NCBI GenBank assembly: GCA_964187785.1
Contig: OZ076409.1
Location: forward strand, 18,850,001 to 18,914,000
Source: Amphiscolops sp. MND2022
Taxonomy: Eukaryota
Direction: 5' to 3'
DNA length: 64,000 bases
Shown here piece by piece: positions 41,201 to 61,879 of this stretch (positions are counted from its first letter, which is position 1; every line of letters starts with the position of its first letter). The notes below the pieces were generated by a model that was not told the DNA's origin, did not search any database, and saw nothing but the letters and a program-made list of their open reading frames with translations. Both the position numbers and the translations under genes were made by a program.

Positions 41201-44200
41201 AAGACTGTATCGGGAGTGGTTGTTCATAGTTAATGCTGCTTACAGCGGTTTCTGAAAGGATCTTCTTGCATAAGTGTTGTTATCAACGTTTTTTCACGAG
41301 ATTTTCTTGAGTAAATTTATTTCAGTGAACTCAGTGAATTCTTTTCAACTTTTGGATTTCTATATCATTCAAATTTGAACAAAAAGTGATTTTTTTCATG
41401 GAAAATGCTGACCTTTGACAGATTTTTGATGAAGATTCCGACTTCCATGTCTCCGGGGTCCTCCTCAAATGCGTCTCCCTGATTTGCAGGAGTTGTCACC
41501 CTATCAGTCTCATCTGCGCCCTCTTTGTTGTTACCCCCTGAACATTCATACTTTTCATGAATTACATTATATTTATTATGCCTTTTCTTCATTGAGAACG
41601 AGTACTGTGCAGCCCAATATGGGTATCAGGTAGAGGTTTATCGGACAACAAGTCCAGTCCGGTATCCGGCCGAATTTCAGGAAAATGTCCGGCCGGATAT
41701 TATCTTGAAATAATAATAATCTTAAAATTTCGGAATATCTAACATAGCAAAAGTGTATTGGTATAGAAAAATTGAATTTGTGACTGACTGTGAATCAAAA
41801 TTCATCAAATTATGGCGGAGGGAAATAGTTTTTCACCGCTCTGTGGTAAAAGCCTGCTTTGTTTTCCGTAATTCTTATTGCCCAATTCTGAAAACAGCCC
41901 TTCATCCCTTACAATTGAAGATAATGTCCGGTCCTGCCGGTATCCGGCTTCAATCAGTCCTGTCCGGTTGTTCGGCCGGACGGAAATTTCCCTGTCCGGT
42001 GCACCTCTAGTATCAGGTCAATTTTTCCTAAGTTAAAGTCTCTGAAATTAGCCGAAATTAGCTGAAAATAGGGTATGTAGCGACTACCTATCGAGTGCAC
42101 GATTTCGAAAATTTCGATGAAAATTTCGTTCAAGGGACTATATCTCCTCTACTAAAGAGTCATATTCCGCCAGACGGCAGCGTGTCTTTATTCAAGTACC
42201 TGTCCACGGAATTGAAGAGGATTTGAGCAAGAGACTCGAGAGAGACCCCAACCGAACGAGAAGATTGCAGAAAAACACGGCCACTATCAGAAAAAGACTC
42301 AAATTTCTGCCAAAACGGACTGAACTTTGTTCTAACCAGTGCTTTCTTCAGCGAAGCGTTACAAGACGCTGTGATTACCAAAAATGAGTCAATTAGCTTG
42401 ACCAAGCATCCGTGCTTGTGTCCCCGGCTAATTGCTGCCTCAAAAGTGCTAATTATGTAGTAATTTTCGTATTTTCTTGTTGTAACAGCTCGTGAGCTAC
42501 TCATTTCAATCTCCTGTGTAACTTCGATAAAACTTGATTTTTCCTTTCCACCACTTGCATTTTTTAAAGGCTGTCTAAGTGTTGATTTCGAAGAAAAAGC
42601 GTAATGCGCACTACTGATAGCAATTACAGACTGGATCAGGCCGGCGAGCACTTCACAAGAAGCGGAATCCTCCTCTGACGGGACAGTTTTTACCCGAAAG
42701 AGGCAAAATGAGCTCATGGTCATGGGCGCCTGTCCCGGGCAAATACCCATATCATGTGTTCCTCTAACTCTTATGGTTACGGCGACAATGGTGAGAGCTT
42801 GTCGTTACATAGAGACATCATTTTTTGGCGACCACAGAGGGATCGCTTCGAAGTGCTTCCCTTAATGGTTTTAAAATAGCCGACCCTCTGGTGATTGACG
42901 CCAAGTACGACCCGACTCTGATGGAAAGAAGAGAGAACCAGAGTTTTTCCACGTTTTTACCCTGTGTGTGTCATTGAAGATTTCAACCCCGGTGGATAAA
43001 GGTAAATCTTGTAAAAAAGCGCTGTATGTTGTGATTTTCATGCTTTTTTAGTAGTTGACAGGTAACGATTGAATTAGTCTACCCTCTTAACGGGTCACTC
43101 ATAATATTGGTCTAGCAAGCCGCTGGGAGGCTGCTAGAAGTGTTAACAGGTGTTTTCTAGCCTTTTTCAGCTTTTTATGACCAATGAAGTGAGTGTTGAG
43201 AAGAGGATAACCCTTACTCAGAGGAATCCTACAATCTGCCGAAACGAGTTATACGACTCACCGATCCCATTTCCCGTACAGGCAACCTAGAGAAATGAAA
43301 TTTGGTGGAGACGTACTACAAATGCTGACGTGTCTAATGGTGCAACCCGCTTGTCTCTGGCTGTTCTGGGTGATGAGCAAAAAGAACGGGAAGACACGAC
43401 TCGTCAGTCCGGGTTGTATGATATTTTTGAGTCAGGTTGAAAAATTTTTTTGGGTTGCTCAAAATTTTGTGTACGACCATTTGCCAATGTTTCTACGAGC
43501 CTTCTGTAACTAAGTGTGTGCTTTTGCACCAGTTTTGTGCGAAAAAAGTGCGTTTCCTCATGTATTTTCGACGAAAAGTGCCAAATTTGGCCATTTTGAG
43601 GCGAAACACCTACATGAGCGCGAGCGCTCTTGGTGCTAGCCACACACCTGCAGAAATTAAACAAAAGTAGCTCAGAACTCTAACGAGTTCGCAAAAAACG
43701 CGACGAAGTACTCAAAGTTGCCCGAAAAGGCACTTAGTATAAGTTTTGTGAGGAAGAAAACCCGTTTTTGAGAGATTGAACATTTTAGCACTTTGAACTC
43801 ATGGGGGAATTTGTGTGGAAGCTTTTAAACATCCCCGTATGGTTGCAATTAGGTTGGGGTACACCTGCCGGTACCCAACAATACTCATTTTGGTAATTAT
43901 AACCATTACTTCTTGAAAAAAGTTACAAAAACCGTGATTTTAAGGTTTTTCTATAGTACTCTTAGAAGAAACCCAACTTGACATTTGACGAACACTTCTA
44001 CGCTTAGAATAGCCCCCGGGCTATCATTTTCAGTTTATTCAGTAAATTTAACGATCCGCAGTGAAGACCGCATCCCGAAATTCCTTTCCAGTGCTGAGAA
44101 AAGTAGTAAAATACACTGAAGAACCTCCATTTTCCTAAAATCCGGACTGTCTCTGAGCTAAGATCGGACCATTGATTCTTGGACCTTAGCGAAAAAGTGG

Positions 44201-53200: not shown

Positions 53201-56200
53201 ACAACGATGGTGCTGACACACCAACGACCAATAACGAAAAGGGATCAATTCCCCCTGCAACAAATCCCATCAACAATGATGCAGCTACTACCACGAAGCT
53301 CCCCAATGCTCCTAGAGGGCGTGGACCCCGGGGACGTCCGCCAGGCAGAGCAAGGCCGCGAGCCTCGCTACCACGTGGTCACCAACGGAGAGGTGCTATT
53401 AGAGGCACTCGCAAAAGAGGCCGTCCCAGAGGTAGACCTCCTCGTACAACGCACGCCAGACCTAACACTCCTACCCATATTCGTAACACTCCATCAATGG
53501 ACACTGACTCTTCTGCCCCTAGCGCGGCGGTTACCTCAGATCAGGCAGCACCACCAGAATCGACCAACGCTCATTATGGACTGCGACGCAATCGTATTCC
53601 CAGATATCGTTGCGGAACATGTGGCCTACGAAACTGCGAATGTAACTACATGGTCCACGCGGGCTTCCCAATCGAATCCCAGGGAGTCCTACTAGCACGT
53701 GAACAGGAGAAACCACTTCCGAGCGGAATGGTTGACCGTTTGGTTATTCGAGCCGAGAAAACCTACACTGGGCTACAACGCAGTGACACTCCATATCCCG
53801 TGGACTATATCCTATCCAAAATGAAAGATTCTACGATAGCAAGGGCTCCGTGCCCAAGGTTCAAGGAGTGGACCTATGATCTTGTTGGTTTGGAGTTCAC
53901 CTTACCCATCACTGTTCCCCCTTTGCCTACAAATATTGCTTTTGGTCCTTTCAACTATGAGCGAGAGCCTATCCAAATGATACGCTGTATTCCTGCTGAC
54001 CTCTTGTACGACAAATACAACGTCACAGCAAAACCAGGAGACGTTTATCAGCCTACAAGCAACTGGTGGCTACTAGTTACGGCCAAACAAGCATCCGACT
54101 TGGTTCATCCCACTAACTTGAACACCTGTCTGGAGAGTTTGCGGACGATGGCCTCTCCTGATAAAATCACTTGTTTCCACACGATAGACCTATATCGTGG
54201 TAAAATTAAGTTTGAATGGTGGCTGGAACTTATTATAGCAGTTTTATCAAATTTCTCACGAATCAGATTCCTGGACGAATGGACACACTCATTTCCTAGT
54301 CCTGTATCCCTCCAATCGGCCCTGCACGCACTGGATACATGGTCCAGGGCTAACATTGATAATCAATCATTGCCGCGATCTGTATGGCAAGATTTGGGCG
54401 CAATCAAGGGCCTCCTCCCGAATGCATGTGACGATGCTCTTTCCAAGGACCCCGGACGAGAGTTAGTGTATCATGGAGCCGCGAGACCTCAATTGGTTGA
54501 CTATGTGCAGTATGCCAATACGGACTTCCTGCAGACTCCCCATCATATCGTTTTATGTTGTCCCGCAAATCTGGAAACTAGTTCTGCCGCTCTTCGTTAC
54601 GTCATTCGTGAGCATGGTGCAGATGCAATCTTTCAACTTCGACCGGAGGTTGGCAATATTGTAACGCTACCCACATCTTTGATAGACGGCCATCCTCAGA
54701 CTATCCACCTTCTAATCACACGAGCTACACCTCGCTGCCCCATGCTTGCTGATATTCTCTTTGGATGTCTTGATCATTTGAAAACGTTACTCGAGCGCTT
54801 GGAGGCGATAGAAGTACACTTTGCCATCGTCGATCCTGAGCGCCCAATACGTAATCTTTTTGATTTTTATGCCTGTTTGATGGACGTATTCGCCGACACC
54901 CCCCTGACCGTCGTTCTTCACGATCGCGTTTACGTATCTATTGCAAGCGTCGCTAGCTTTCCGTAAAACTTTCGTTTGTCCGCTTTCTTTTTTTTTGTTT
55001 TTCGTTTTTTTTTGTCCGCTCGATTAAGTTTAGTGAATCGATACGAAGTTTATTTGAGACTATTACGTTATCTTTTTCTTTAATGTTAATGTGTAACATT
55101 CTATTACTTTCCCTGGTATTACCCTTAAATGACCTATGGTGTTACCCTACTATCAAGTGTGCTACAATCGACCTACGCTCTTTCAGAACTGTCGTCATGA
55201 ACCAAGATAATGATAGAAGCAACAACGTCCCGCCGAGGTCTACAGACAACTCTCCTGCCTTGGGGCAACGCGTCTATGACACTGCGCGTGTCCAACGCAC
55301 CCCACAAATTGCCTTTATTCGAGACAGACTCGACCAAGGTCTGTCGCCAGCTGCAGTGGCCGGGGTAGCAGCAATAATTGCCCAGATGGAATCACAATTG
55401 CAAGCCCCAATGCTAACGATATCAATTACCTCAGGGTTTCCTGGATTTCAACGATCCATGACGTACCAAGATGGAGTGTGGCACGGCCATGATCTTACGC
55501 ATCACTTCACAGATGATCGTGCGGCGATCTCGTATAGTCTTGCGAATGGCGGAGTCCACCAGACTAGACCTTTACAGATCCCTTCTTGCCCGCCTCCACC
55601 TCCACCGCCACCTCCTGTACCAACACCACAAGCAGTAGTGCGCGCGCGCACTCCTGCTCCTATGGTGCCTAGCCTGCCCAATCAATCTATGGCGGAGCAA
55701 GCAGTCATTTCAGCGCTACAAGCAGTGGCTGCCAATCCCAATTACGATGACTTCATGCGATCCATGGAGCAGTGTTGGCCAGAGCTACGTCGAATTGCTC
55801 TGCCCACTGTCACTATTCGTAACGACAATGCGACTTCAACTGAAACACGTCAAGGTGTCATCACTATTCCCCACATCAATCCTCAGTCTGAACAGCCAGG
55901 ACACTCTCGCACCGTGACTGTGGAACGCAGTCGTTCGCCTTCCCGCTCTTCTCAAAAGGGGGGAGGAGAGAGCCGCCCTGCCTCCAGAAAGCGCAACGAC
56001 CCCTCCCCAACAAAGAAGACTCAACAACCATTGACTGCCCGTGACAGCCCCTCGAGCAAGCCACCACCCGACAAAAAGATTTCCAACGAGAAGGCCACAA
56101 CCTCCAAAGCGCCAGACCAAACGAAGTCAAAAGTGTCGGAAGCATGCGTGCTTCCCTCACCCCAATCACAACCGGACGTGACAGGCGAGCAACAAGGACT

Positions 56201-59200
56201 GCCGCAACCACCATCCACGCAGTCTACAACACGCGAGTCGCTGGCTCAACGAGCGACTCCTAAGCCCTCCACGTCAGGACAGCCACAATCGGAGCAAACT
56301 GTGGGTTATCAAGGCACCCCTGTATCCCAGCGAACTGTCAAGGACATAATGGGTGATTACCCAGGGTTGAAAGTGACCAACAGTGGTCCAACTGGAACCC
56401 CACTCCGGAAACAGGCGATTCAACATCCAACTAAGAGGACCTTTACGAAACAGCCGACGTACCTGAGTCCCATGCAGAACACAAAGGGCACATTGGTCAC
56501 CAAGGATTCCCGACGTATCTGGGAATCGGCAGTTATAGTATCGCCCGAATGGCTATTTGAGAAAAACATGTGTCCTCCAAATGACGAAGAGCACGCGAAA
56601 CTGAAGAAGGCAAATGTACCCGTATTCATGAATCGTCCAATCCGCCCAGACCACACTCCTACCAATGAGCCGCCATGGCTAGGGAAGGCAATGAATATGC
56701 TGCCAAACGTGGATGACAATTACCTAGATGCCCTCAACGTTGACCTTCGTGGGCAATTCGCCGATCGATATTTCCTCAACGCTGGAGAGACCTTTGAGAT
56801 CAACCCACGGTACGCCCGTGATCTCGAAGCCCAGCTACCAATGCCAAAAGAAAGGTTGCAGCGTGCGCGCTTCGCCTTACTTATTGACTCAACATTCCTC
56901 AAGAATGTCCCCATCGACAACGTGTTGTCAGACGTGATGGTTTTTACTCTACCGCTGTCACGTATTCCCGAGATGGCCGAAGTGTTGGTCACCATGTTTG
57001 ACCCTGAGATGACAGGAACCTTCAAAGAGCCACCTCCACGTAGAGTGATCATCAGCAACGTTTTCGATCACATGGCCTGTGAAGGACTAATGGCCCAGAT
57101 CGCGAACGTTGAGATTATGAATCCAAGTCCGGCTCAGCGAACAACGGTACGCAATGCAGCATTGAACATGGCCCGAGCCATGGAAAAAGCCCAAAACATC
57201 TTGAAAGACAAACTCAAGGTGCCAGCCCTGTTCGTGACACCCCCAGGTTTTTGCCAATGGCCCCCCGCCTTGCAGAGATTCATATACATGGTGACAGAAG
57301 TTTGCAAGTGCAGAGAAATAGACTTTGCGATCTGCGCGCCCAATATGCGGATTAGCTCCAATGACTTTCGCCCCTCCTGGCTGTCCTACATGGGGTACAT
57401 TGCCTCAGTGTCTAAAGTGCTACAGTCAGTAGAGAAAACAGGGAACGCGCAGCTGACAATCGACGATGCCATTTACTTTGATCACGGCACTCGCATGGGC
57501 TTGTTGGTGTTCAACAAGGACGGAGAAAGGCGAGTCCCAGAGCCCAGTACGGCCGAATGCGAGGCAATCCGCCTGAATAACTGGATAGAGCGCGCGCGCT
57601 CATCCGGTGGAAAGACTTGTATCAAAACCGATCTTGCAGAAGTCACTGCCACAATGAGCAAAGTCCCCAGCGACCGAGAAGTAGAACGAGCCATCCCGCG
57701 AGTTCAATTTGCCAAGGACCTCACAATCGATCAATTATCAGTGGGAATGAAGTACATTGCTGCTAAATTGACGAGCGAAACTCAGGCTGAAATCCAAGCC
57801 TTCAGCAGCACCTACGACGCCTGGTACCAGCGGCTACAAACTACCACCGTAGCAGACATTGCAAAAGAGCTTGGGATGTCAACCGACCAGTTTGCCATCT
57901 GTTTGGGATTGGGTTGGAGTCCCGATGTTATTCGAGTCGAGTTCGATTTAGAGGAGAGTTGGTTGATCGAAATCAGCGAGATTATCGGTACCGTGCAGGT
58001 GAACGAACTCTTTGCACTGATGCTCACTTTCGGGCAGAAACGCTTTGTAGCTGGCCCAATGATGATATTGACTGACCTGGTTACCGAGTGTAATCTGGAA
58101 TGGCTATTTTCATATCTGGTGATTGCACGAGGGAATATCTCAGGTCTAACCGCCCTAGCCAAGCTGTTGCAACGGAAAGACGCTCAGGATTATCCCGCTC
58201 ACCTGGAGCGTATGACAACTTCATTGTATCACTGGATGTATTGCAGTCTGGTCTTTGCCTCAGGACTCTTCGTGGGGGTGGATAAGCACCAACCGTTATA
58301 TGATGGACGTCAGCTAGTGACCGAGGTAGCTGGATTTTTGACACCCAACCAGCTGGCAGATTTCACTTTGGCTGAAGTCGAAGATCTTATACCGGTGTTA
58401 GCACCCGTGCTAACTCCGATATTTGGCCCAACCGGGATACTCCGATACCCCACCAAGCCTCTGAGACTGGCCTCGGAGACGTTAACGGTATCCATCCTAA
58501 CTTATCTGAAGAACGTAAAACCACACAACTATCAACAGATGCTTGAACGTGGGCTGTTTCTGCTAGTACCACGTATGTATACCACAATAAAGAATGAGAC
58601 ACAGAAAGACGAAAACCTGGCCGGTATTCTCAAAGCCCGAACAAAGAAGGCGTGCCCTTTACCTCGCGAATACGGCCCGGTGAATTGGTATAATTCTCCC
58701 CTAGACCACCTCGGAATCCCACAGCGATTCAATTGGAGTTTCGCACACCTCAGGAAGTACGTGACCGAGTGTGTGCAAACCATGGGCGGTCACACGAATC
58801 AGGAGTACAATTTCCAAATGATTAAGCTTCCAGCCAGGTACTGGCGAGGACCCATCGGTTATATCCGGGCCAAGCCAATCAGTATGGTCGAGAAGGGCTT
58901 TGATGAGCAGTATGCCTATCGCGACCACTACAAACTTGGCGTGTGGATGTCAAGAACCCTGGAGGAGCGCCAAGGACGCCTAAGAGGTTTAATCCTCCCC
59001 CCACTGACAATGCCTGTTTGGAATCCAGAGGCGAGGGTTACTATGGGAAGCGACATGCCAGCGGAGACTTGCTACCACGTCATGGAATTGCTAAGTGATC
59101 CCCTCGGACCCGAATGGGAAGCCTCTAGGCAAATCATAGAGCATGCGAATAGGGACAACTGGTCCAGAGCCTGCGGGCTCTGGGGCCGACCTGATCTACG

Positions 59201-61879
59201 CCCGAAACTCAGTGCGAAACAGAAACGACCCATTGCCACCCGCAATAGACCGCTGGATCTACCGCACTTGTTTAATGCTAGTAGACTGGATGTACAGATC
59301 CCAATCTCCACATCAACCACAAGTTCTGCCAATGTTAGCGGCTCAGCCAATGCAGCGCAAGAACATTCGCCAGAAGCATCAACTCCGGTAGCCGCAGAAA
59401 ATGGCCCTGGTGGCTCAAACACGGCTCCTAGGACCCATGAAACTGCCAGCGCAGAAACAAAGCCAGTCCTGCGAGGAGGAAATACGCGAAGAGGATCTCT
59501 GTCTGAACTGCAACCAAAGGCAGACGTTTCCCCCAGAGCGCGTCACTCCTCTGCCACCCAGTAAAACAGAACTAACTTTGTCGTCATTCAATTTCCAACT
59601 TCAATAGTCTTATGCTAGATAAAATTTTGCGGAATCTCATGGTTTCAATCTCTGTTGTTGCTAAGCTTCGATTATGGAAATGCCAATTGGTCATGGGTAA
59701 AAATCTCCGAGTGGAGATGAAGCCCCCGGGCTTCATCTTCCTTGTTATTCCGTTTTGGGACCGGCAACCCAACCATGAAACTGCGTTCTTGCCTTGCCTT
59801 AGTTAGATGCAATATTCAATTTGCAATTTGTGTTTGCAGTTAGTGCTTTTTCATGCTACTTCATGCTACAGGTGGATGCGCTGTGCGCACTCCGTGCTCT
59901 AAATTTTCGGTGCTATTACACCATTTTAGTTGCTAGTTATCGTTTACACTGTTGCCACTGTCGAAAAAGATAAAAAGAAAAGATAAAGGAAAAGGAAACA
60001 AGGAGGGAGAGATGAGAAATGAATAGAATAAAAAGATTGATGAACCTCGACCATTGTTTTTCTTGAGCTGCCTGATAGGATCGAGAGTAAGTCTCGCAAA
60101 AGAAATTTTAAATTGACCGTACTAATTAATTGATTTTATGGCAACTGCTTACCAAAAGAACTTTTATCAAACGCCAAGCAGTGCGAAGCTCCCGAGCTTC
60201 GGAAAATATGTTTCGAACAGTCATGTGATGGTCGTTGACCTTAAAACAAGTTTTAACGCTAACGGCAAATAAAAACTTTTTTTTGAATGGCCGAAAAGAA
60301 ATTTTAACGCCTGAATTGCTCACGACAGGCTACAAAAAGCAATGACTTTGCCGTATAAGATTTGTGTACAAAGTTGTATTGATTTGATCAAAATGCAGCA
60401 ACGCTGGGTCAAAAATACTTCCACGAGGCCAATTTGACGATGTCTCGATGAACCGTCCAGCGCTATTTGATGTGCACTCTACCTCCTCAGTGGGGCACAG
60501 ATGACTCTGGGTACAGACTCAATGACGCCAACCCACACTTGACGGGGACGTCAAGACTAGACCCCGGGGAGTGTATGTAGCGACTACCTATCGAGTGCAC
60601 GATTTCGAAAATTTCGATGAAAATTTCGTTCAAGGGACTATATCTCCTCTACTAAAGAGTCATATTCCGCCAGACGGCAGCGTGTCTTTATTCAAGTACC
60701 TGTCCACGGAATTGAAGAGGATTTGAGCAAGAGACTCGAGAGAGACCCCAACCGAACGAGAAGATTGCAGAAAAACACGGCCACTATCAGAAAAAGACTC
60801 AAATTTCTGCCAAAACGGACTGAACTTTGTTCTAACCAGTGCTTTCTTCAGCGAAGCGTTACAAGACGCTGTGATTACCAAAAATGAGTCAATTAGCTTG
60901 ACCAAGCATCCGTGCTTGTGTCCCCGGCTAATTGCTGCCTCAAAAGTGCTAATTATGTAGTAATTTTCGTATTTTCTTGTTGTAACAGCTCGTGAGCTAC
61001 TCATTTCAATCTCCTGTGTAACTTCGATAAAACTTGATTTTTCCTTTCCACCACTTGCATTTTTTAAAGGCTGTCTAAGTGTTGATTTCGAAGAAAAAGC
61101 GTAATGCGCACTACTGATAGCAATTACAGACTGGATCAGGCCGGCGAGCACTTCACAAGAAGCGGAATCCTCCTCTGACGGGACAGTTTTTACCCGAAAG
61201 AGGCAAAATGAGCTCATGGTCATGGGCGCCTGTCCCGGGCAAATACCCATATCATGTGTTCCTCTAACTCTTATGGTTACGGCGACAATGGTGAGAGCTT
61301 GTCGTTACAGTATCGCGATTAGCTACGTTCACATACCAATAGTGCTTTAAATGCAGAAAACGCCTAAAGCGAAGCGGGGCGACGTGCCACTACTGATCTA
61401 GCGGCTGGTTTCGACGACTGGTTTTTTTAGGAGATTTTAACTTGGGAGATTTTGACATATCCACTTTTGACGGTCCACTTTTCATGCAGCCTATAAAGAT
61501 GAATTTATTGAACAAAAAGGCAGAGAAAGGCTTCAATTTTTTCATGGGCATTTTTTTTTAAAATTCAGAGAAGCAATGTTTCTATTTAACTCCTTTTCTG
61601 AAAGAAATCGAAATCAATCAAAGTCATGAAAAACTTACATGCATTAATGAGCAAAGATGACATTCTTACCAGACGGTCGTCCACACCAGTAGGAGCGTTT
61701 CAAAAAGAAGAGCGGATGTTGGGCTATCCCGAATGTGCCGGGGAACACGTTGTCGAAGTACCAAGTCAGAATTAGGTACACGAAGCCGGAAACAAGTTGA
61801 CCAGTGAAAACCTGAGTCAAGGTCAGACTATCGTCGTAAGCTCTCTCAGTGTTGAAGCTGGAGCCCGAAACGCCGATGC
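2072..61879 (-). CDS. ABCA3: ABCA-subfamily lipid transporter, ABCA3-like (partial, 17 exons in window; orthology not established)
   Basis: Spliced frame is continuous across all exons: Walker [10 protein letters not shown]-loop CPQHDVLFD, signature LSGGMKRK, Walker [13 protein letters not shown]-loop [16 protein letters not shown], and TMD2 motifs [12 protein letters not shown] and KAKHIQ-MVSGV. The gene extends beyond both window ends. Confidence 0.92.
3046..3530 (+). repeat. Truncated 5' LTR (lacks the last ~300 bp and the PBS)
   Basis: Identity with the 3' LTR stops at TCTTCTTCAC and the sequence jumps into leader. Confidence 0.85.
3640..6100 (+). repeat. Degenerate ~180-bp monomer array in three ~720-bp higher-order repeats
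   Basis: Anchor motifs at 4007, 4189, 4366, 4540, 4726, 4909, 5088, 5261, 5446, 5633, 5812, 5988; every fourth monomer is most similar. Confidence 0.75.
6358..7236 (+). CDS. Putative AT-hook protein (three RRGRPP motifs) inside the non-autonomous element
   Basis: 292-codon ORF (first ATG about 6385); [16 protein letters not shown] and HRRGRPPN are in one frame; AATAAA at ~7472. Confidence 0.45.
   Translation: MQGETLLAQMQINISDAVESEPLTPPTKDMGVDPTSLDTTTICIALCIAETLAEDHADDNGLRERNHHSSDTKNERISISPSTSLSQDSVSNSHFPGTKSLISTTKLLPSLLKDSFEPHSAERGLQDFIQVDPPVFINWLPGGSAKTRPTGHRRGRPPRTDCEHSWKKILLSLYDGRRRGRPPRQVLPWSLRPKGHRRGRPPNNYSSLETDPVSKIFFIEFPDASCLLHVLLLLDGDVYPVRTTLHFFSRGRRCRQRLMFTAAFLCQAFNFVHSSLSLCERGCSTTKARGVN
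8326..9113 (+). repeat. Complete 3' LTR (788 bp)
   Basis: TG...CA ends with a perfect 14-bp terminal inverted repeat TGTAACGGCAAGCT / AGCTTGCCGTTACA. Confidence 0.85.
9800..9917 (-). CDS. ABCA exon ([15 protein letters not shown]...[11 protein letters not shown]), GC donor
   Basis: Acceptor tgttttag; donor CAG/GCAAGT; phase 2 to 0, joining MVSGV. Confidence 0.88.
10012..10023 (-). CDS. Putative 12-nt ABCA microexon (AGAAATCGAAAG)
   Basis: Acceptor ttttttttttcag and donor AAG/GTAATT; phase 2-2, frame preserving. Confidence 0.6.
10448..10652 (-). CDS. ABCA exon (GASFTQEDG...[12 protein letters not shown]...NHPL...DQG)
   Basis: Acceptor ttccacag, donor gtatgt; phase 1 to 2. Confidence 0.9.
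10675..10904 (+). mobile_element. Short Helentron/DINE-like non-autonomous repeat with an internal tRNA-derived segment
   Basis: Starts AACAAGACGCCCG and ends hairpin + GGGCGGAAAATAATAA, the same termini as 12284-13242. Confidence 0.55.
10723..10795 (-). pseudogene. tRNA-derived (SINE-head-like) sequence
   Basis: Minus strand has A box TGGTGCAGTTGG and B box GGTTCGAACCC; acceptor and anticodon arms are imperfect. Confidence 0.6.
11471..11575 (-). CDS. ABCA exon (QHTYPDTS...EYVAHWIIG)
   Basis: Acceptor tttttttcag, donor gtgagt; phase 1 to 1. Confidence 0.82.
12284..13242 (+). mobile_element. Helentron/DINE-like non-autonomous repeat with four ~180-bp internal subunits
   Basis: Subterminal inverted repeat ATTTTCCGCCC / GGGCGGAAAAT, 3' hairpin CCCATATGAAATATGGG; near-identical inverted copy at 34128-34909. 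Superfamily is inferred from structure only. Confidence 0.7.
13737..14245. mobile_element. Mutator/Foldback-like MITE with repetitive TIRs (AAAACAACTCGTCG units)
   Basis: 9-bp TSD GTCGTAAAG at 13728-13736 and 14246-14254; long inverted arms. Confidence 0.75.
14251..14791. repeat. Second copy of the 17-bp-unit foldback element, opposite orientation
   Basis: Same units and reverse-complemented core AATTAGCTGATCAATTAAAC; terminal GTCACCCAACC. Confidence 0.8.
14857..14986 (-). CDS. ABCA exon ([19 protein letters not shown]...YKEKTG)
   Basis: Acceptor ttctgtttag, donor CAG/gtactc; phase 0 to 1, bridging the neighbouring exons. Confidence 0.82.
15213..15450. mobile_element. Degenerate MITE (GTCAAAATCTC / GGAGATTTTGAC termini)
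   Basis: Shares GATTAGCTACGTTCACATAC (reverse strand) and termini with the MITE interrupted by the giant LTR element. Confidence 0.6.
16449..17004 (+). mobile_element. Helentron/DINE-like repeat, family 2 (diverged)
   Basis: 5' GGAAC..CCCAAGTCGGC and 3' CTATAGTCGG...AAAAGCGCCGATTAAAA match the units at 19308-21812. Confidence 0.55.
18600..18760 (-). CDS. ABCA exon (start of TMD2: [18 protein letters not shown]...LLALLSA)
   Basis: Acceptor ttttccag, donor gtaagc; phase 1 to 0. Confidence 0.92.
19308..21812 (+). mobile_element. Head-to-tail cluster of Helentron/DINE-like family 2 units
   Basis: Recurrent 5' AACAAGNCGGGAACGTCTAAAGTCGGCGC and 3' CTGTAATAGTCGGGC...AAAAGCGCCGACTAAAA; internal AAGGGGGACCCTTT motifs; duplicated 3' ends. 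Confidence 0.7.
21890..22020 (-). CDS. ABCA exon (inter-half linker, ANSMTIDNG...FSTVK)
   Basis: Acceptor tgtttgcag, donor gtaaga; phase 2 to 1. Confidence 0.8.
23779..23883 (-). CDS. ABCA exon ([10 protein letters not shown]...PAAP)
   Basis: Acceptor tttcccag, donor CAG/gtaatt; phase 2 to 2, continuing EEVFM-RVG. Confidence 0.85.
24510..24716 (-). repeat. 3' LTR of the Mag-like element
   Basis: Direct repeat of 30328-30534; preceded on the minus strand by PPT AAAGGGGGGAA (24717-24727). Confidence 0.95.
25047..30314 (-). CDS. Gag-Pol polyprotein (two zinc knuckles, PR IDSGS, RT WLDD, RNase H, integrase)
   Basis: Open ORF; first ATG after the PBS is at 30314 (MSQKNE); [28 protein letters not shown]...CIPC, LDFIGP/TDKG/VER. 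Confidence 0.93.
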   Translation of the reverse strand: MSQKNETNPIEVSSRNSSSEESGEKKGRSTTHQKITLPIFEKKTIQEAKLWWRRFIQYVKMTQKIDLNRMTTDKEIIEEYREELEIKIKDIFIWALGEEAVTEMTKTVRDNDPNKMNINQLYSLFRLHFIPERNKFHSRADFFGIVREPSETAEDVWTRILQTEKNCEFDNVTPAELIASKFLSIIGRSTGDYELKKKIRKSNMTIETITDLIHEYMYDRLNDSNNSNDGRNVKHVQERPQKRKWSEKSSYERNKKRPEYQKQKYKDNRCGQCGAPNWSRQHVCPARTVECRNCKKKGHYEKMCRLPKRIQYVDKISSSAEEDNWDYNKIQSINNKKKKDFFHATLLVNDVPIKFIIDSGSPVTLIPQKLFKGTSEVTKLNTNYKDVNDNKIEFRGQTLATVKTNNTTLQLPLLITKANITPLMGLDWMNRLGIALNTTTEDVKIHNIKLDETQKKILKLKNEFKDLFYNNTEIKNLSVKINLKADAKIIQQKGRPVPIHLQEQVANEIKRLIKNGYLERATEITEICFVSPAVITVKKDKSIKIALDSRKLNEATIKRKAQMPNMEELISRISRKISEEKEGEIWLTKLDFDYAYGQIKLDDETKNLCIFTITGGEFTGYYRFLKGFYGLADIPTIFQERIDKTLEFKHPAWLDDIIIVTKGTIDKHEAEVKETMENLEKAGYRLHPNKCEFFKQETEWIGHRIDQNGIRPLQDKLEAITKIEIPKNEKELKSFLGAIQYLAKYIENLSAQTDILRKLLKKQNEWNWTQEHTKAFNNLKKLITQLPCLAHYNTDNENILTTDASTKGLGATLWQKQKDGNLKPIGFASRFLSDTEKKYAINELELLAVVWGFEHFRLYIYGKPIELLTDHQALEPLIKRNRSNKTYSARLTRWLDRLAHFDINIKHVAGKHLTLTDYLSRNPVAKPVPIENYDEEYVINCIIPLLEFINTHGSISDEKKATMQTENNTAKQNNNQSQTRSVNKQPLTINQINERKPFQTLQTSEPIDSHHKFDHRSINMDIKTIESIEKDDPSEDTLRLTSRWREITKPGDYRFTQGQWRKYAPPRTLRAELKRIEVDLWQRRNRLIWQKMEKNSKETPEEVARKKEFHRVIEKIRNLPKRDEAGPSSSNTQQQQPQYEEESINVDQRDETETMSSDSDQTIAVPAINFKRYLGATSVRYIQMGTASKVQYEDKWDLEETVRQAEQKFSTDLRTIADETTNDEKLLKTLVCLERRNFEQIPEEYKQYKNNLSTRFGVVFYDDKIVIPKPLRQTVIMLLHKGHPAINKMSHAARPFWWPKLTKDIQTKCNECIPCKMSGKSIKPQLPMTEINYLPPAEKPNQEIQLDFIGPIRFKHRRFYILISIDRYSRWPAACICEAPNSKTAKNFLEQYIVLNGIPQTIRTDKGTAFTGREFRQTCKNLNIKPIYGTPYIHTATGLVERGIKTLKDLMRTNLQDKCNLNEALYQALMVMRMTVHSTTKESPFERHYGRKPRTELTNYLNLPTGNNEYISAQPETLQVYSFNNGKGGYDQLIMKTPRKLKCDVSNNFPYKFLEKRQTKNKFESEYQTKPQTAVAGTKHTITTDTNKVIHRKLASKPLPNSFQNPLSRRGENRRGIDGRFIQMSLPSLETEDTDEEETQSEGEKESTPVAETSTEQMEEEFEFTPPTPIRRGEPQSPGAGNLKLHVENMNEQQLEQALETINENPTTTTIIDNNGNENYIKTEINEITNTSERSSNNNQPIFKNFRRSSEDLQD
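30318..30327 (-). promoter_or_regulatory. Primer binding site, tRNA-Ser-like
   Basis: TGGCGCAGTC immediately after the 5' LTR; complementary to the 3' end GACUGCGCCA of invertebrate tRNA-Ser as I recall it. Confidence 0.7.
30328..30534 (-). repeat. 5' LTR of the Mag-like element
   Basis: Direct repeat of 24510-24716. Confidence 0.95.
30554..30644 (-). CDS. ABCA exon ([29 protein letters not shown])
   Basis: Acceptor catttaag, donor gtaaca; phase 1 to 2. Confidence 0.92.
30804..30962 (-). CDS. ABCA exon (GVGYHM...GAELSFRLP...NFP, regulatory domain 1)
   Basis: Acceptor ctctgtag, donor gtaagt; phase 1 to 1. Confidence 0.92.
31654..31864 (-). CDS. ABCA exon (Walker B, D-loop, H-loop of NBD1)
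   Basis: [13 protein letters not shown]...[18 protein letters not shown]; acceptor gttaaag, donor gttaga; phase 0 to 1. Confidence 0.95.
33530..33689 (-). CDS. ABCA exon (signature [12 protein letters not shown])
   Basis: Acceptor gcgtacag, donor gtagtt; phase 2 to 0. Confidence 0.95.
34128..34909 (-). mobile_element. Inverted copy of the 12284-13242 repeat with three internal subunits
   Basis: Reverse complement nearly identical to 12284-13242 but about 178 bp shorter. Confidence 0.75.
35837..36135. repeat. Spacer-less ~299-bp near-perfect palindrome
   Basis: Arms of 150 and 149 bp centred on AGAGCTG|CAGCTCT (35986/35987); about 4 mismatches and 1 indel seen. Confidence 0.92.
36168..36321 (-). 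CDS. ABCA exon (GLYEPTSG...[18 protein letters not shown])
   Basis: Acceptor tcttcag, donor CAG/gtccga; phase 1 to 2. Confidence 0.93.
38042..38327 (+). repeat. 29-bp minisatellite, ~10 copies (CCGTGTATTATCAGCCCACTTAGGCTCAA)
   Basis: Direct tandem units without spacers. Confidence 0.92.
38776..40760. mobile_element. Possible Kolobok-like non-autonomous DNA transposon
   Basis: TTAA on both sides (38772-38775, 40761-40764); imperfect purine-starting TIRs GGGGAGGTGTTG / AGGGGAGTGTGG; no ORF. Confidence 0.4.
40821..40941 (-). CDS. ABCA exon (Walker [13 protein letters not shown])
   Basis: Acceptor gattgtag, donor gtaaca; phase 0 to 1. Confidence 0.95.
41413..41537 (-). CDS. ABCA exon (GGNNKEG...[19 protein letters not shown])
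   Basis: Acceptor tgttcag, donor gtcagc; phase 1 to 0. Confidence 0.9.
41631..42009. mobile_element. hAT-type MITE (379 bp)
   Basis: 8-bp TSD GTATCAGG (41623-41630, 42010-42017); TIRs TAGAGGTTTATCGGACA / TAGAGGTGCACCGGACA; internal TCCGG repeats. Confidence 0.85.
42076..42809 (+). repeat. 5' LTR of the giant element
   Basis: TGTAGCGAC...GTCGTTACA; direct repeat of 60576-61309. Confidence 0.95.
42826..42843 (+). promoter_or_regulatory. Primer binding site, tRNA-Arg-like
   Basis: TGGCGACCACAGAGGGAT resembles the complement of the tRNA-Arg(TCG) 3' end (TGGCGACCACGAAGGGA, from memory); 16 nt downstream of the LTR end. Confidence 0.7.
45199..54966 (+). CDS. Gag-Pol polyprotein with a long C-terminal extension (AT-hooks, Cys cluster, two macrodomain-like units)
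   Basis: CCHC knuckles at 47689 and 47836; PR LIDTGSG at 48481; RT YIDD at 49978; RNase H DTDAS...ADGLS at 50419-50775; IN HHCC and D,D,E at 51588-52083; GPY/F-like WRGPHKV at 52498; no stops. The true start codon is uncertain. Confidence 0.95.
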   Translation: MKPNSLRNLWISITRTLGRANTQRRSNHSRGGRKDISRCTETSKTPDPTGCETNLSAISDLTSDPKEEDWPTDDSFIMEPDFSDPMSDDASEEYQAKPVAKTTDDIGGSADETGSQAHTSKWLQELTKVAVTPFGTDEAGTWPNSNRTNAEEETEMSCLNATGQLKAPSVASESTANTAEILQQMSYVGGMNYAKTRLQEATAPRASGKGKQVRPPALLAQTGTTGPHGDSRSSSPSSKAASARSSAYRAVHEAAKARKALLDAQIGVKQAASQLSERKARCDREHQSIMEEIEAVQTELRTSTERQAQGHEIQAARMDAMGYRMAEIKDMVTEREVRMEAQLQEVCSQIQAMGTMLKNIQPQPAPVSNTIKELLQDTNISLPKPMKSVSLKPKESVTISTIPSGSKQHLARYAPLPQTLVSNGEAASTSTKFIPSAVSTKNIPPTTKTHKKEPTCEVITIDTSSMGISDLREPTRANVLTEVTSTFQTANATLGESAAEFQTANDELPSGNPCASSTRRREVTLPENTDDSVNSTRGSSIPPPAISEETPISPEQLRFTEAISKAMSKELAPLIANRDKTRVRPTVYKGTKDGSVDGWLPVMKRFLERVHAKSPKIDRAWAIIDHLEGEARNYIINKSEPERDEPDKVFSLLASRFGTGGNRMHVRQTFMSRVQQEKEDWMQFLDALEGLRTQGFPDEPITTRRYEILQRFIDGVNDPTLRQELAVVYAAEAYLTEPPTVESLRFTTRQLQRHRPNTSKPYDPRYAMRSRPHPFVPGKLIHPAPGLPQNVLPPNQGQREAKPQMAPPAPASVKQAPAQQQPARVVPQGACFNCGLPGHFARECPSRDLARKPAARAAPEERVNLCENNVASACSGPVFCVNCGMTEHSASQCQNVPVHEDLAYSLWAEQPPASQTMSDSEMVLMLRPAETAHVATPLTVTCGKIQIQTNPEPTTFDPSGRTIMSVRLLLAIERETRPELTIDALIDEITANENCRQLTLPQPEEWQVKGVTSTYHAYSPIPVKVCIDGVDMRFGATIITDAFPPGICLGPQELRCYNIDAQEPTGEARIDERASLVVSFVVPDAAPVPLRGLIDTGSGVSILTFSAYNRVAVRTGTLLRPYGIDLYAANGKTIKTFGLAEKVKFQLGGYELETNFVVVDDAMGVEDFLLGRNFLRAYQVLVDLTAMKVIVRAPSEPVWYHAHTQVSNESLNSSVAIAQDVVLQPFERAILRAKLLVDNLEPFIFRTVLINFQTPNRMLKNAIFLEDTVATVGETGFLYVSLGNFTSNVQRIKKGTLLGTAVPVTMVHKAIPQIVPGQSSETQQSNANYVCKVYEQMNLDSSSEYSSSSEFEFLSSTEPSELGLSEREVKKRTDPALMAPIPGPEAQLDEVRGLWGSTASDTLSKLLNEFDDLFMKFKADIGKCKIAKHPVEVEPGAVPHREGARRMSPDKAERANQEVRDLLALGMIQPSLSPWASGIVMVKKKSGELRFCCDFRPLNEVTIKDAYPLPRIDESLSRLGKAKIYTSIDLAWAFWQIPVRKADRQKTAFACELGLFEWRRMPFGMCNVSATFQRAIARALQRIVNREGSMVMAYIDDIVIATETIEDHMDRLREVFQCLHEAGFKMRVSKCDFMKSEIKYLGRVVSADGIKPDPKAVTKLKEWDIPRTKTELQSFLGFANYYRDFIPWHAKLVAPLHAITGGASSFLWGEEQQRAFNSIKVALMEATALAQPDTEGEFVLDTDASGVAISGILHQWQGPPESRKLRPIVFGSKKLTATQAKYGAPKLEMYAAYYFILKNHSYLCPRKFTLRVDNQALSWLKTYSMDQAIIGRWIMALEKYHFSIEHRPRTQHRNADGLSKRTNDYKKHEKQLKGLPAIADKWDFLSQEEYNKLPLAPWFDVHGRVIPNHPELPAHLQRLGSQSSPETTVAAPSRKSGGSKRNATIREEAMRAPLPTLPKPELTLPAELYPEYPEDWLELTEEYQRDYLLPTHAANVPSRTTYPLMEKQATSTAPEHVKQAAFVVNSISMELHEHANTVHGLKDLLLAQNRDVHILAIKKLVMQESIDNDVFPENVRTFAKNYHKQKKNLLLINANGILCVKYSKTQRALHERPCMIVMPQLYQHEILFKAHDAMGHQGIAKVLARIQERHTWPGIRRTIGQYVSQCITCQQVRDKPGDVRFHLKNIQSGYFNELVQYDHMKICPSDDGNTGILVIIDHFSKLAEAVPCNHDEYDAATTSKLLLQKWFARHGTPTRMQSDNAPNFTAAVSAEFMKAAQVTKVTSTAGHPRTQGLVERQNRTLLTLLRVFCSRRMRDWDQYLDEVMGAYNSTRHATTGFSPYMLTRGMEKAIPLTFLYPEFATQSFESHEAYVEHVLARQQEIHDLVRRNTHQAQQRQKLKYDRAIRAKAYEVGEPVWVFCRYIPQKGSPKLMRAWRGPHKVARVLQEGRVYILDTGQKVHFERLKPHHGGPTEWAAVPAHNGEVAIIMDPDPEQSHEEVRDDASQPSYRAEEPISEASDASLPSRQRHWMDTRLRTHMRAGGSRLHYQQFGYSSTESDDERSDVLLSSAQTNPDESVILPSQVDEPAPIPEMPISPLPAMEALFSENEAVPDALDVAPNPNIHVPTESAATSLTGTSAPLLTNPSLTNMLSNFPIWPLIDDNDLNPTLDNDGADTPTTNNEKGSIPPATNPINNDAATTTKLPNAPRGRGPRGRPPGRARPRASLPRGHQRRGAIRGTRKRGRPRGRPPRTTHARPNTPTHIRNTPSMDTDSSAPSAAVTSDQAAPPESTNAHYGLRRNRIPRYRCGTCGLRNCECNYMVHAGFPIESQGVLLAREQEKPLPSGMVDRLVIRAEKTYTGLQRSDTPYPVDYILSKMKDSTIARAPCPRFKEWTYDLVGLEFTLPITVPPLPTNIAFGPFNYEREPIQMIRCIPADLLYDKYNVTAKPGDVYQPTSNWWLLVTAKQASDLVHPTNLNTCLESLRTMASPDKITCFHTIDLYRGKIKFEWWLELIIAVLSNFSRIRFLDEWTHSFPSPVSLQSALHALDTWSRANIDNQSLPRSVWQDLGAIKGLLPNACDDALSKDPGRELVYHGAARPQLVDYVQYANTDFLQTPHHIVLCCPANLETSSAALRYVIREHGADAIFQLRPEVGNIVTLPTSLIDGHPQTIHLLITRATPRCPMLADILFGCLDHLKTLLERLEAIEVHFAIVDPERPIRNLFDFYACLMDVFADTPLTVVLHDRVYVSIASVASFP
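55197..59564 (+). CDS. ORF2 of the giant element: unknown protein with an SGNH/GDSL-like domain
   Basis: Uninterrupted ORF (open from 55083; ATG at 55197 follows the acceptor-like CTCTTTCAG at 55186); Pro/Ser-rich disordered N-terminal part; SGNH-like block pattern at 56865-57425. Confidence 0.85.
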   Translation: MNQDNDRSNNVPPRSTDNSPALGQRVYDTARVQRTPQIAFIRDRLDQGLSPAAVAGVAAIIAQMESQLQAPMLTISITSGFPGFQRSMTYQDGVWHGHDLTHHFTDDRAAISYSLANGGVHQTRPLQIPSCPPPPPPPPPVPTPQAVVRARTPAPMVPSLPNQSMAEQAVISALQAVAANPNYDDFMRSMEQCWPELRRIALPTVTIRNDNATSTETRQGVITIPHINPQSEQPGHSRTVTVERSRSPSRSSQKGGGESRPASRKRNDPSPTKKTQQPLTARDSPSSKPPPDKKISNEKATTSKAPDQTKSKVSEACVLPSPQSQPDVTGEQQGLPQPPSTQSTTRESLAQRATPKPSTSGQPQSEQTVGYQGTPVSQRTVKDIMGDYPGLKVTNSGPTGTPLRKQAIQHPTKRTFTKQPTYLSPMQNTKGTLVTKDSRRIWESAVIVSPEWLFEKNMCPPNDEEHAKLKKANVPVFMNRPIRPDHTPTNEPPWLGKAMNMLPNVDDNYLDALNVDLRGQFADRYFLNAGETFEINPRYARDLEAQLPMPKERLQRARFALLIDSTFLKNVPIDNVLSDVMVFTLPLSRIPEMAEVLVTMFDPEMTGTFKEPPPRRVIISNVFDHMACEGLMAQIANVEIMNPSPAQRTTVRNAALNMARAMEKAQNILKDKLKVPALFVTPPGFCQWPPALQRFIYMVTEVCKCREIDFAICAPNMRISSNDFRPSWLSYMGYIASVSKVLQSVEKTGNAQLTIDDAIYFDHGTRMGLLVFNKDGERRVPEPSTAECEAIRLNNWIERARSSGGKTCIKTDLAEVTATMSKVPSDREVERAIPRVQFAKDLTIDQLSVGMKYIAAKLTSETQAEIQAFSSTYDAWYQRLQTTTVADIAKELGMSTDQFAICLGLGWSPDVIRVEFDLEESWLIEISEIIGTVQVNELFALMLTFGQKRFVAGPMMILTDLVTECNLEWLFSYLVIARGNISGLTALAKLLQRKDAQDYPAHLERMTTSLYHWMYCSLVFASGLFVGVDKHQPLYDGRQLVTEVAGFLTPNQLADFTLAEVEDLIPVLAPVLTPIFGPTGILRYPTKPLRLASETLTVSILTYLKNVKPHNYQQMLERGLFLLVPRMYTTIKNETQKDENLAGILKARTKKACPLPREYGPVNWYNSPLDHLGIPQRFNWSFAHLRKYVTECVQTMGGHTNQEYNFQMIKLPARYWRGPIGYIRAKPISMVEKGFDEQYAYRDHYKLGVWMSRTLEERQGRLRGLILPPLTMPVWNPEARVTMGSDMPAETCYHVMELLSDPLGPEWEASRQIIEHANRDNWSRACGLWGRPDLRPKLSAKQKRPIATRNRPLDLPHLFNASRLDVQIPISTSTTSSANVSGSANAAQEHSPEASTPVAAENGPGGSNTAPRTHETASAETKPVLRGGNTRRGSLSELQPKADVSPRARHSSATQ
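60541..60575 (+). promoter_or_regulatory. PPT-like region
   Basis: GACGGGGACGTCA...CCCCGGGGAGTGTA directly before the 3' LTR; conserved at 8292-8325. Confidence 0.65.
60576..61309 (+). repeat. 3' LTR of the giant element
   Basis: Direct repeat of 42076-42809 at an 18,500-bp offset. Confidence 0.95.
61670..61879 (-). CDS. ABCA exon (end of TMD1: [28 protein letters not shown])
   Basis: Acceptor gttttcag, donor gtaaga; phase 1 to 1. Confidence 0.93.

Follow-up and report, generated by a model that had tools for sequence, protein, structure and literature searches.

Long terminal repeat (LTR) retrotransposons of the Ty3/Gypsy type (Metaviridae) carry protease (PR), reverse transcriptase (RT), RNase H (RH) and integrase (IN) between direct LTRs with TG..CA termini, together with a primer-binding site (PBS) for a tRNA and a polypurine tract (PPT), and typically have a target-site duplication (TSD) of 4-6 bp. 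In the published accounts, Troyka is the group described with 3-bp TSDs, other LTR retrotransposons having 4-6 bp (Kojima 2025, PMC12440569). Troyka elements possess CG..CG ends (CGCCA..TGGCG), LTRs of 100-400 bp and an internal part of up to 7.7 kb, and Troyka and the Kuafuorterviruses have a CX2CX8-10HX4C knuckle and no GPF/Y motif (PMC12440569), their RT motif being IADD, VADD or LADD instead of YXDD (Gong and Han, PMC11673190). Among very large elements, Burro of planarians, at more than 30 kb, contains BIR, BCL2, MATH, ankyrin and Env-like domains, while the size of Ogre in plants is due to its long LTRs (PMC6431247). Bdelloid Vesta1 elements bear an active GDSL/SGNH open reading frame (ORF3) behind pol, in the position of Env (PMC5408684). 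Here, we compare these systems with a Ty3/Gypsy-type element at 42076-61309 of a 64,000-nucleotide stretch of Amphiscolops sp. MND2022 (GCA_964187785.1, contig OZ076409.1, positions 18,850,001 to 18,914,000), further called the window.

The element measures 19,234 bp, of which 17.8 kb is internal, and its two 734-bp LTRs (5' TGTAG...TTACA 3') show 0 differences and are flanked on both sides by the triplet GTA. The 19.2-kb size, the identical LTRs and the two long ORFs noticed in a first-pass annotation of the window all hold: ORF1 spans 3,292 aa from stop to stop (45088-54966, first ATG at 45199) and ORF2 1,535 aa (54957-59564, first ATG at 55083). Pfam places CCHC, PR, RT, RH and IN in this order in ORF1, with HHCC, D-D(35)E and a GPY/F-like WRGPH motif (52498, plus strand) in IN, and the long N-terminus, which has a coiled-coil-like stretch, presumably includes a capsid-like region. 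The closest solved RT-RH is the Ty3 RT (1.7e-64), with 221 bits compared to 153 for the next group and 125-128 for gammaretroviral enzymes, a ranking of similarity and not a tree. An Rfam search gave no match anywhere in the element, leader included. The element thus possesses PR-RT-RH-IN between direct LTRs, TG..CA termini, a tRNA PBS and a PPT and shares Gag, CX2CX4HX4C knuckles, YXDD and a GPY/F-like motif with Ty3/Gypsy; we regard it as almost certainly an Env-less, autonomous and very recently active Ty3/Gypsy retrotransposon. It and its relatives differ from the typical Ty3/Gypsy in a TSD of 3 bp instead of 4-6 bp (not a taxonomically defining trait), a PBS lying 15-16 nt from the LTR, a size of 15-19 kb, an integrase tail of ~790 aa and an optional, non-Env ORF2.

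We read this element as a Ty3/Gypsy retrotransposon with modified processing of its complementary DNA (cDNA) ends, in which the integrase tail and ORF2 would play accessory parts, and give this reading as a whole a probability of about 0.68. Its observed parts are the single Gag-Pol, the PBS matching a host tRNA 15-16 nt inside the element and the 3-bp stagger.

Target-site duplications and cDNA ends

In the 1.07-Gb host genome (G000 in the coordinates below) the element belongs to the first of three families, A, B and C, which have LTRs of 713-788 bp and an internal part of 13-18 kb. The 3-bp TSD read off the window copy turned out to be lineage-wide, as an exact 3-bp TSD was found at 32 of 35 insertions of the three families. 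In family A it is present at 16 of 18 insertions (the window element, 14 of 16 further pairs and one solo LTR), the remaining two differing by one base; in family B at eight of nine, the ninth having 4 bp; and in family C at all eight. One family-B locus out of ten (L072/L073) has no LTR pair and was excluded from these counts. An unrelated control Gypsy in the same window (24510-30535) has a PBS that adjoins its LTR and a TSD of 5 bp, and the 3-bp TSD is therefore not an assembly artefact. At 25 insertion sites (from 29 rows, less 4 in which the script failed to recover the TSD) the TSD centre is A or T in 84%, with a weak preference for A at -4 and T at +4 (27/50 symmetrised). Many LTR ends of the lineage are separated by exactly 3 nt from a further LTR end (e.g. 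G000 C2:74856649, C6:73643485 and C6:73651210), as if one element had inserted at the terminus of another or several had inserted in tandem at a single site.

The element resembles Troyka in its 3-bp TSD with rare 4-bp exceptions, its single Gag-Pol, the absence of Env and the existence of non-autonomous derivatives. It differs in its termini, which are TGTA..TACA instead of CG..CG in all three families, in its two CX2CX4HX4C knuckles, WRGPH and YIDD, and in the size of LTRs and internal part given above. Membership of Troyka or Kuafuorterviridae was rejected, since termini, knuckle, GPF/Y, RT motif and sizes all disagree; the 3-bp stagger therefore probably arose separately.

The offset PBS likewise proved to be a property of the lineage. 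It lies 16 nt from the terminal CA in families A and B and 15 nt in family C, and is the exact complement of the host tRNA-Arg(TCG) gene in A and C (all 15 non-CCA bases pair in the window copy) and of tRNA-Lys(TTT) in B. A pattern consisting of the LTR end, 12-17 free bases and the PBS matched 3,010 times in the genome and 0 times in the reversed control; among the 100 junctions listed, the spacer measures 14-16 nt and varies in sequence, its last bases being a T run. For tRNA-Lys(TTT), the family-B primer, 893 pattern matches were counted genome-wide, almost all of them on the same strand, and a tandem array of its genes with a ~193-bp period occupies G000:C7:5219900-5255000 and beyond (L116-L141).

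Minus-strand synthesis starts at the PBS, and the cDNA should therefore carry the spacer past the terminal CA. To our knowledge, retroviral and retrotransposon integrases remove 0-3 nt from cDNA ends. In the mechanism that we propose, built on established retroviral chemistry and one genomic junction, the linear cDNA would have a 15-16-nt extension ending in the T run beyond the right CA and a 2-nt extension at the left; integrase would cut at both CAs, releasing ~16 and 2 nt, and the processed ends would be joined to the target 3 bp apart. The junction, at G000:C5:22090499 (family B), consists of an LTR, 15 of the 16 spacer nucleotides, GA (the PPT-side bases) and a second LTR differing from the first at 2 positions, followed by spacer and PBS. 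It resembles two unprocessed cDNA ends joined together, and supports, without proving, the removal of 16 and 2 nt. We are fairly confident of such long, asymmetric processing, in which integrase takes ~16 nt from the right and 2 nt from the left end. A literature search on long LTR-PBS spacers returned no relevant match and one unrelated entry.

Alternatively, the spacer might never enter double-stranded cDNA, either because RT skips it by hairpin bypass or template jump or because a nuclease removes it ahead of integrase, which would then be ordinary save for the 3-bp stagger, and the LTR-spacer-LTR junction a by-product of recombination. That a single full junction was found fits this explanation, as does the family-B spacer, which can pair with U5 (a fold of -22.5 kcal/mol). 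However, in A this pairing is weak and C lacks it, for which reason a conserved U5-spacer stem was rejected; the junction stops one base before the PBS and continues with two PPT-side bases, as predicted for unprocessed ends; and inheritance requires the spacer, the length of which is conserved across families, to be copied. We judge this alternative unlikely.

Copies, sister families and the small relative

The genome-wide LTR search proposed in the first-pass annotation gave 1,820 first-look candidates, and the best 40 of these, which were scored, are all 99-100% identical to the LTR of the window. From these 40, 16 other family-A LTR pairs were fetched. The tail is kept in all 16, ORF1 is unbroken in 12 and 3 kb of ORF2 is missing in one; nine have identical LTR pairs and the 16 pairs count 11 differences in total. 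By hand count, about 60 of the 150 best matches to the second macro-like domain of the tail sit in open frames of 3,200 aa or more. Sister families in the same genome also have the tail, at 41-57% identity (53% and 41% for the whole tail), and a one-off chimera is thereby ruled out. The RT-RH sequences of A (window), B and C and of protein P0002 share 74-88% identity and group in a single clade (100/99), compared to ~25% identity with six other Gypsy rows of the same genome, in a tree of 13 rows that all come from this genome or from unnamed proteins, without named references. Together with the ~3,000 LTR-PBS junctions, these data support a distinct, young, high-copy and recently active lineage with at least three sister families. 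One family-A copy (L031/L032) is inserted into a repeat resembling a miniature inverted-repeat transposable element (MITE) or foldback element, of the 17-/27-bp-subrepeat kind described below. Two full-length ORF2 relatives on short contigs of 7-9 kb (P0302 and P0312, 26-28% identity) are possibly from other assemblies and would then extend the lineage beyond this genome.

This lineage might instead belong, as an ordinary member, to a Gypsy clade that is already catalogued, the odd TSD and PBS offset being on record outside the papers searched. Its RT, RH and IN are canonical and a macrodomain after IN is common in this genome, which would suit such a view. Against it, Troyka alone is named with 3-bp TSDs in PMC12440569, no homologue of tail or ORF2 bears a name, and a search confined to published papers shows no such family. 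We hold this explanation, too, to be improbable.

A shorter element at 3046-9113 had been noticed as a relative sharing leader, LTR 3' end and PPT motifs, which is correct: compared to the big element, its leader is 66% identical over 1,071 nt, its LTR 3' end 65% over 257 nt and its PPT region 70% over 96 nt. As a non-autonomous partner of the window element it needs qualification, since it derives from sister family C, which has Pol-bearing members of its own; no PBS remains in the window copy. The family-C LTR gave 2,013 candidates, of which 11 loci were fetched. Five are non-autonomous copies of 6.8-8.7 kb with full LTRs, an offset PBS and a frame of 315-462 codons that has three AT-hooks and weakly resembles the N-terminus of Gag (E 2e-5), and three bear a Pol with 76% identity to that of A and 56-59% in the tail. 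The remainder comprises two solo LTRs and a 5' LTR with a downstream part unlike the small element. Family C thus holds both the non-autonomous and the Pol-bearing copies, on which the assignment of the small element is based. The Gag-N-like protein with three AT-hooks retained by the non-autonomous copies (L092-L094, L106 and L108) is a candidate trans-acting regulator or packaging decoy. At L110/L111 (G000:C2:33124979) one family-C LTR is common to two tandem elements, with a PPT before it and spacer and PBS after it.

The integrase tail and ORF2

When the tail was searched directly, by sequence and by profile, PDB, Pfam and PHROGs yielded no significant match; a phage collection had none either, and ESM Atlas provided a weak macro lead (0.78). 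The tandem macro-like domains predicted behind integrase were supported by way of other Gypsy families of the genome (L145-L167), in which Pfam Macro finds a macrodomain at this place (human OARD1/TARG1 match, 1e-27; 1,555 candidates, the best 150 scored). These domains are intact in most of the loci and degenerate in some, and a numerous ~834-aa frame also bears the domain. With hhalign, a profile of 20 of them matched macro 1 over 110 columns with a probability of 70% (E 4e-5) and macro 2 over 132 columns with 95% (E 4e-8), compared to <0.7% for five control profiles, and the real macro scores lie above all 20 block shuffles of each. The loops are nevertheless degenerate. In macro 2, AGIA is changed to SAAL, GCGLD to DPERP and Lys to an invariant Arg, while in macro 1 the Lys is gone and the first loop is incomplete, so that, read off the OARD1 alignment, neither the Gly-rich diphosphate loops nor the Lys and Asp of TARG1/OARD1 are kept. 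Lys84 and Asp125 of TARG1 are reportedly catalytic. Variants in macro 2 shared among the 16 copies count 0 nonsynonymous to 12 silent (p 3e-7). Purifying selection and lost loops together argue that the domains are retained, probably not as hydrolases; to judge from these alignments, both are probably disabled enzymes of the TARG1/OARD1 type. The AT-hooks of the first-pass annotation are present as AT-hook-like RGRP motifs, which occur in the tail linker of every family examined.

The other macro-bearing Gypsy families share the order of IN, disordered linker and TARG1-type macrodomain at the Pol C-terminus, but have a single domain, with canonical loops in most copies, where the element has two degenerate ones, and their RT-RH is just 23-26% identical to that of the element and forms a separate branch. 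The tail macros would be derived from such an intact domain at the same place. We propose that the tail, with its AT-hooks, Cys cluster and two pseudo-macrodomains, might let the integration complex grip DNA or chromatin without being catalytic itself, and would be required in cis and maintained by selection; for this tether we see even odds. No report of macrodomains fused behind integrase in Gypsy lineages was found in the literature.

The first-pass annotation had gone further, to a kit that organises the element's own chromatin or counters host defence. On such a reading, the macrodomains would read or erase ADP-ribose and thereby dampen PARP or sirtuin signalling where the element integrates, the AT-hooks and a nucleosome-phased leader would build the element's own chromatin, and ORF2 would antagonise host silencing. 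Such a role could draw on the TARG1/OARD1 hydrolase as parent domain, on the conservation of the tail under purifying selection in all families seen, on the AT-hook ORF kept by non-autonomous C copies and on the part taken by ADP-ribosylation in L1 silencing in mammals (PMC4695847). Against it stand the replacement of both Gly-rich phosphate loops and of the Lys and Asp positions, with acidic residues in loop 2, and the dispensability of ORF2. Of the ~180-bp phased leader, a weak period stood and a sequence repeat did not, self-BLAST finding none in the big leader, where the A/T-tract signal in the 165-195-bp band is weak (p 0.01-0.03) and the strongest overall period is 124 bp. The leaders of A, B and C do peak at 178-187 bp (p<=0.04 in 7/7 tests), which would favour phasing, but the same period occurs in background tiles (12/54 at p<=0.02 and 15/54 at p<=0.04); the signal exists, but it is weak and lacks specificity. 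No result favours a chromatin or counter-defence role, which we consider unlikely.

ORF2 consists of a disordered N-terminal third, an SGNH-like domain and a conserved C-terminal region of ~600 aa. Pfam, PDB and PHROGs searches gave no significant match and ESM Atlas nothing, and its relatives range from 94% down to 25% identity, none of the 66 cluster members examined being named. A match of a tobamovirus coat protein to the thin end of the ORF2 profile was rejected as chance (E 0.04 for the single domain, 1.4e-5 for the tandem chain alone). ORF2 is absent from six of the nine family-B copies with an LTR pair (14.8-15.1 kb, LTR pairs 99.4-100% identical), reduced to its N-terminal part in one and present at 28% identity in two 19.2-kb copies; all three Pol-bearing family-C copies lack it. 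Of the two losses in other copies that had been named as the mark of a one-off chimera, that of the tail is thus not seen and that of ORF2 is frequent in B and C: ORF2 is optional and dispensable. Its private variants look near neutral (22 nonsynonymous to 5 silent in the N-terminal part), compared to purged private variants in RT (21 to 36), and the shared variants of its N-terminal part are silent (0:6, small counts), a combination that fits action in trans.

The non-Env nature claimed for ORF2 is upheld, as we found no Rx[RK]R furin site, Pfam match or clear transmembrane anchor, and one moderate internal hydrophobic peak. The SGNH likeness receives modest support: in a global comparison the score is 16.05 compared to 3.2±2.1 (maximum 8.8) in 40 block shuffles, with a probability of 3.4%. 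The five SGNH blocks are colinear and the DS of block I is kept, the catalytic Ser being retained in 21 of 25 rows, the Gly of block II is lost and the His of block V is Arg in most rows. We rate an SGNH fold as likely, though its local comparison (below) is not significant, and catalysis as unlikely. ORF2, optional as it is, would act in trans as an accessory protein whose SGNH fold is dead. It would be translated from a sub-genomic RNA, for which the T-rich tract behind ORF1 is a possible splice acceptor, and would most likely serve as a scaffold in particle or membrane trafficking; as a pseudo-SGNH scaffold we rate it a little short of even. Vesta1 elements offer a parallel in an SGNH-type ORF that lies in the Env position behind pol and is family-specific and dispensable (PMC5408684), but their ORF3s keep the catalytic residues, whereas in ORF2 the His is replaced and the domain lies within a protein of 1,400-1,500 aa. 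At least 27 loci above the Pfam cut-off (L169-L186) carry intact SGNH/GDSL domains in frames of 150-760 aa, which are probably transposon-borne.

Annotated features, precedents and significance

Table 1. Coordinates of the element and of its small relative in the window.
Feature	Position	Strand	Remark
5' target-site duplication GTA (3 bp)	42073..42075	.	matching triplet 61310-61312
5' LTR, 734 bp	42076..42809	+	identical to 3' LTR; 40 best genome matches 99-100%
16-nt spacer, LTR to PBS	42810..42825	+	T run at end; predicted unprocessed right cDNA end
PBS	42826..42843	+	complementary to host tRNA-Arg(TCG)
Leader, 2.35 kb	42844..45198	+	A/T tracts with weak ~180-bp period; 3' half shares homology with leader of family C
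ORF1, one Gag-Pol polyprotein, 3,255 aa	45199..54966	+	
Two CX2CX4HX4C knuckles	47686-47736, 47830-47880	+	ORF1 sequence
PR	48463-48726	+	ORF1
RT with YIDD	49642-50124	+	ORF1
RH	50320-50718	+	ORF1
AT-hook-like RGRP motifs	53310..53450	+	disordered linker; 1-3 per family
Conserved Cys cluster CxxC-x4-CxC	53611..53643	+	putative zinc site
Macro-like domain 1	53893..54312	+	degenerate TARG1/OARD1 type (hhalign)
Macro-like domain 2	54478..54942	+	degenerate TARG1/OARD1 type (hhalign)
T-rich tract after ORF1 stop	54967..55015	+	indel-prone among copies
ORF2, 1,493 aa from first ATG	55083..59564	+	
SGNH-like domain	56859..57419	+	probably inactive (profile comparison)
Polypurine tract GGGGAGTG plus 2 nt	60566..60575	+	adjoining 3' LTR
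3' LTR	60576..61309	+	734 bp, identical to 5' LTR
3' target-site duplication GTA	61310..61312	.	
Non-autonomous family-C element	3046..9113	+	TSD TTC/TTC
Truncated 5' LTR	3046-3530	+	3' ~300 bp and PBS absent in window copy
Degenerate ~720-bp triplication	3978-5926	+	leader of small element
ORF with three AT-hooks	6328-7236	+	
3' LTR of small element	8326-9113	+	

Elsewhere in the window, the control Gypsy (24510-30535, minus strand) is a second young element, with 208-bp LTRs that show 1 difference, one Gag-Pol of 1,770 aa and the TSD TGAGT. A repeat of 176-bp tandem units is present as inverted, 97% identical copies at 12284-13242 and 34128-34909, MITE- or foldback-like sequences with 17-/27-bp subrepeats in long inverted arms lie at 1305-2042 and 14235-14786, and a 29-bp minisatellite of ~10 copies at 37984-38385.

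Several results weigh against our reading of the element as a Gypsy with modified end processing and accessory tail and ORF2. The search for an LTR end followed by an LTR start gave 113 matches compared to 47 in the reversed control (100 listed, 4 fetched), and one full-spacer junction is known among them; of the other fetched junctions, the second has 4 nt between LTRs differing at 31 positions, the third is probably an insertion into a spacer and the fourth matched none of the LTR probes. AT enrichment was not seen at the flanks of the 25 insertion sites (AT 0.62-0.63 at every distance). For ORF2, a local comparison of residues 593-779 with 18 SGNH domains from the genome gives 1-2%, and an SGNH hidden Markov model fails to separate the ORF2 domains from their reversals. 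The fold calls depend on profiles from 20-44 rows, and the age estimate of family A is biased young because the copies examined are those nearest to the window copy.

Precedents exist for each accessory feature: large size, a GDSL ORF3, a 3-bp TSD and a macrodomain behind IN. With Burro and Ogre, the element has in common a very long polyprotein, captured domains, accessory ORFs and, for Burro, thousands of copies (PMC6431247). With 17.8 kb internal it stays below the 20-kb internal cut-off for giant elements used in this review, in the text of which macro and AT-hook have 0 hits. The strongest novelty lies in end processing and integration, and the combination of TG..CA ends, a 3-bp stagger, a processed overhang of 15-16 nt and a doubled dead macrodomain was not found in the literature. 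In its fullest form, which we put forward tentatively and at clearly less than even odds, the proposal is that of an undescribed Gypsy lineage with a new end chemistry (a 15-16-nt overhang removed, a 3-bp stagger independent of Troyka), in which a duplicated dead macrodomain and AT-hooks, recruited as a subdomain of integrase, would hold the long end or read chromatin, a pseudo-SGNH protein acting in trans would be shared among ORF2-less sisters, and thousands of insertions would be rejected by default LTR finders.

If true, a canonical TG..CA Gypsy with a 3-bp stagger and a 15-16-nt overhang would widen the known abilities of the integrase family. Moreover, TARG1-type macrodomains stand behind integrase in several Gypsy lineages of this genome, intact in some and dead and doubled here. 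The defaults of LTRharvest are a mintsd of 4 and a maxdistltr of 15000 (PMC2253517), and with a 3-bp TSD and an LTR spacing of 18.5 kb the ~3,000 insertions in this genome would therefore be missed or mis-bounded; such lineages may be under-counted elsewhere.

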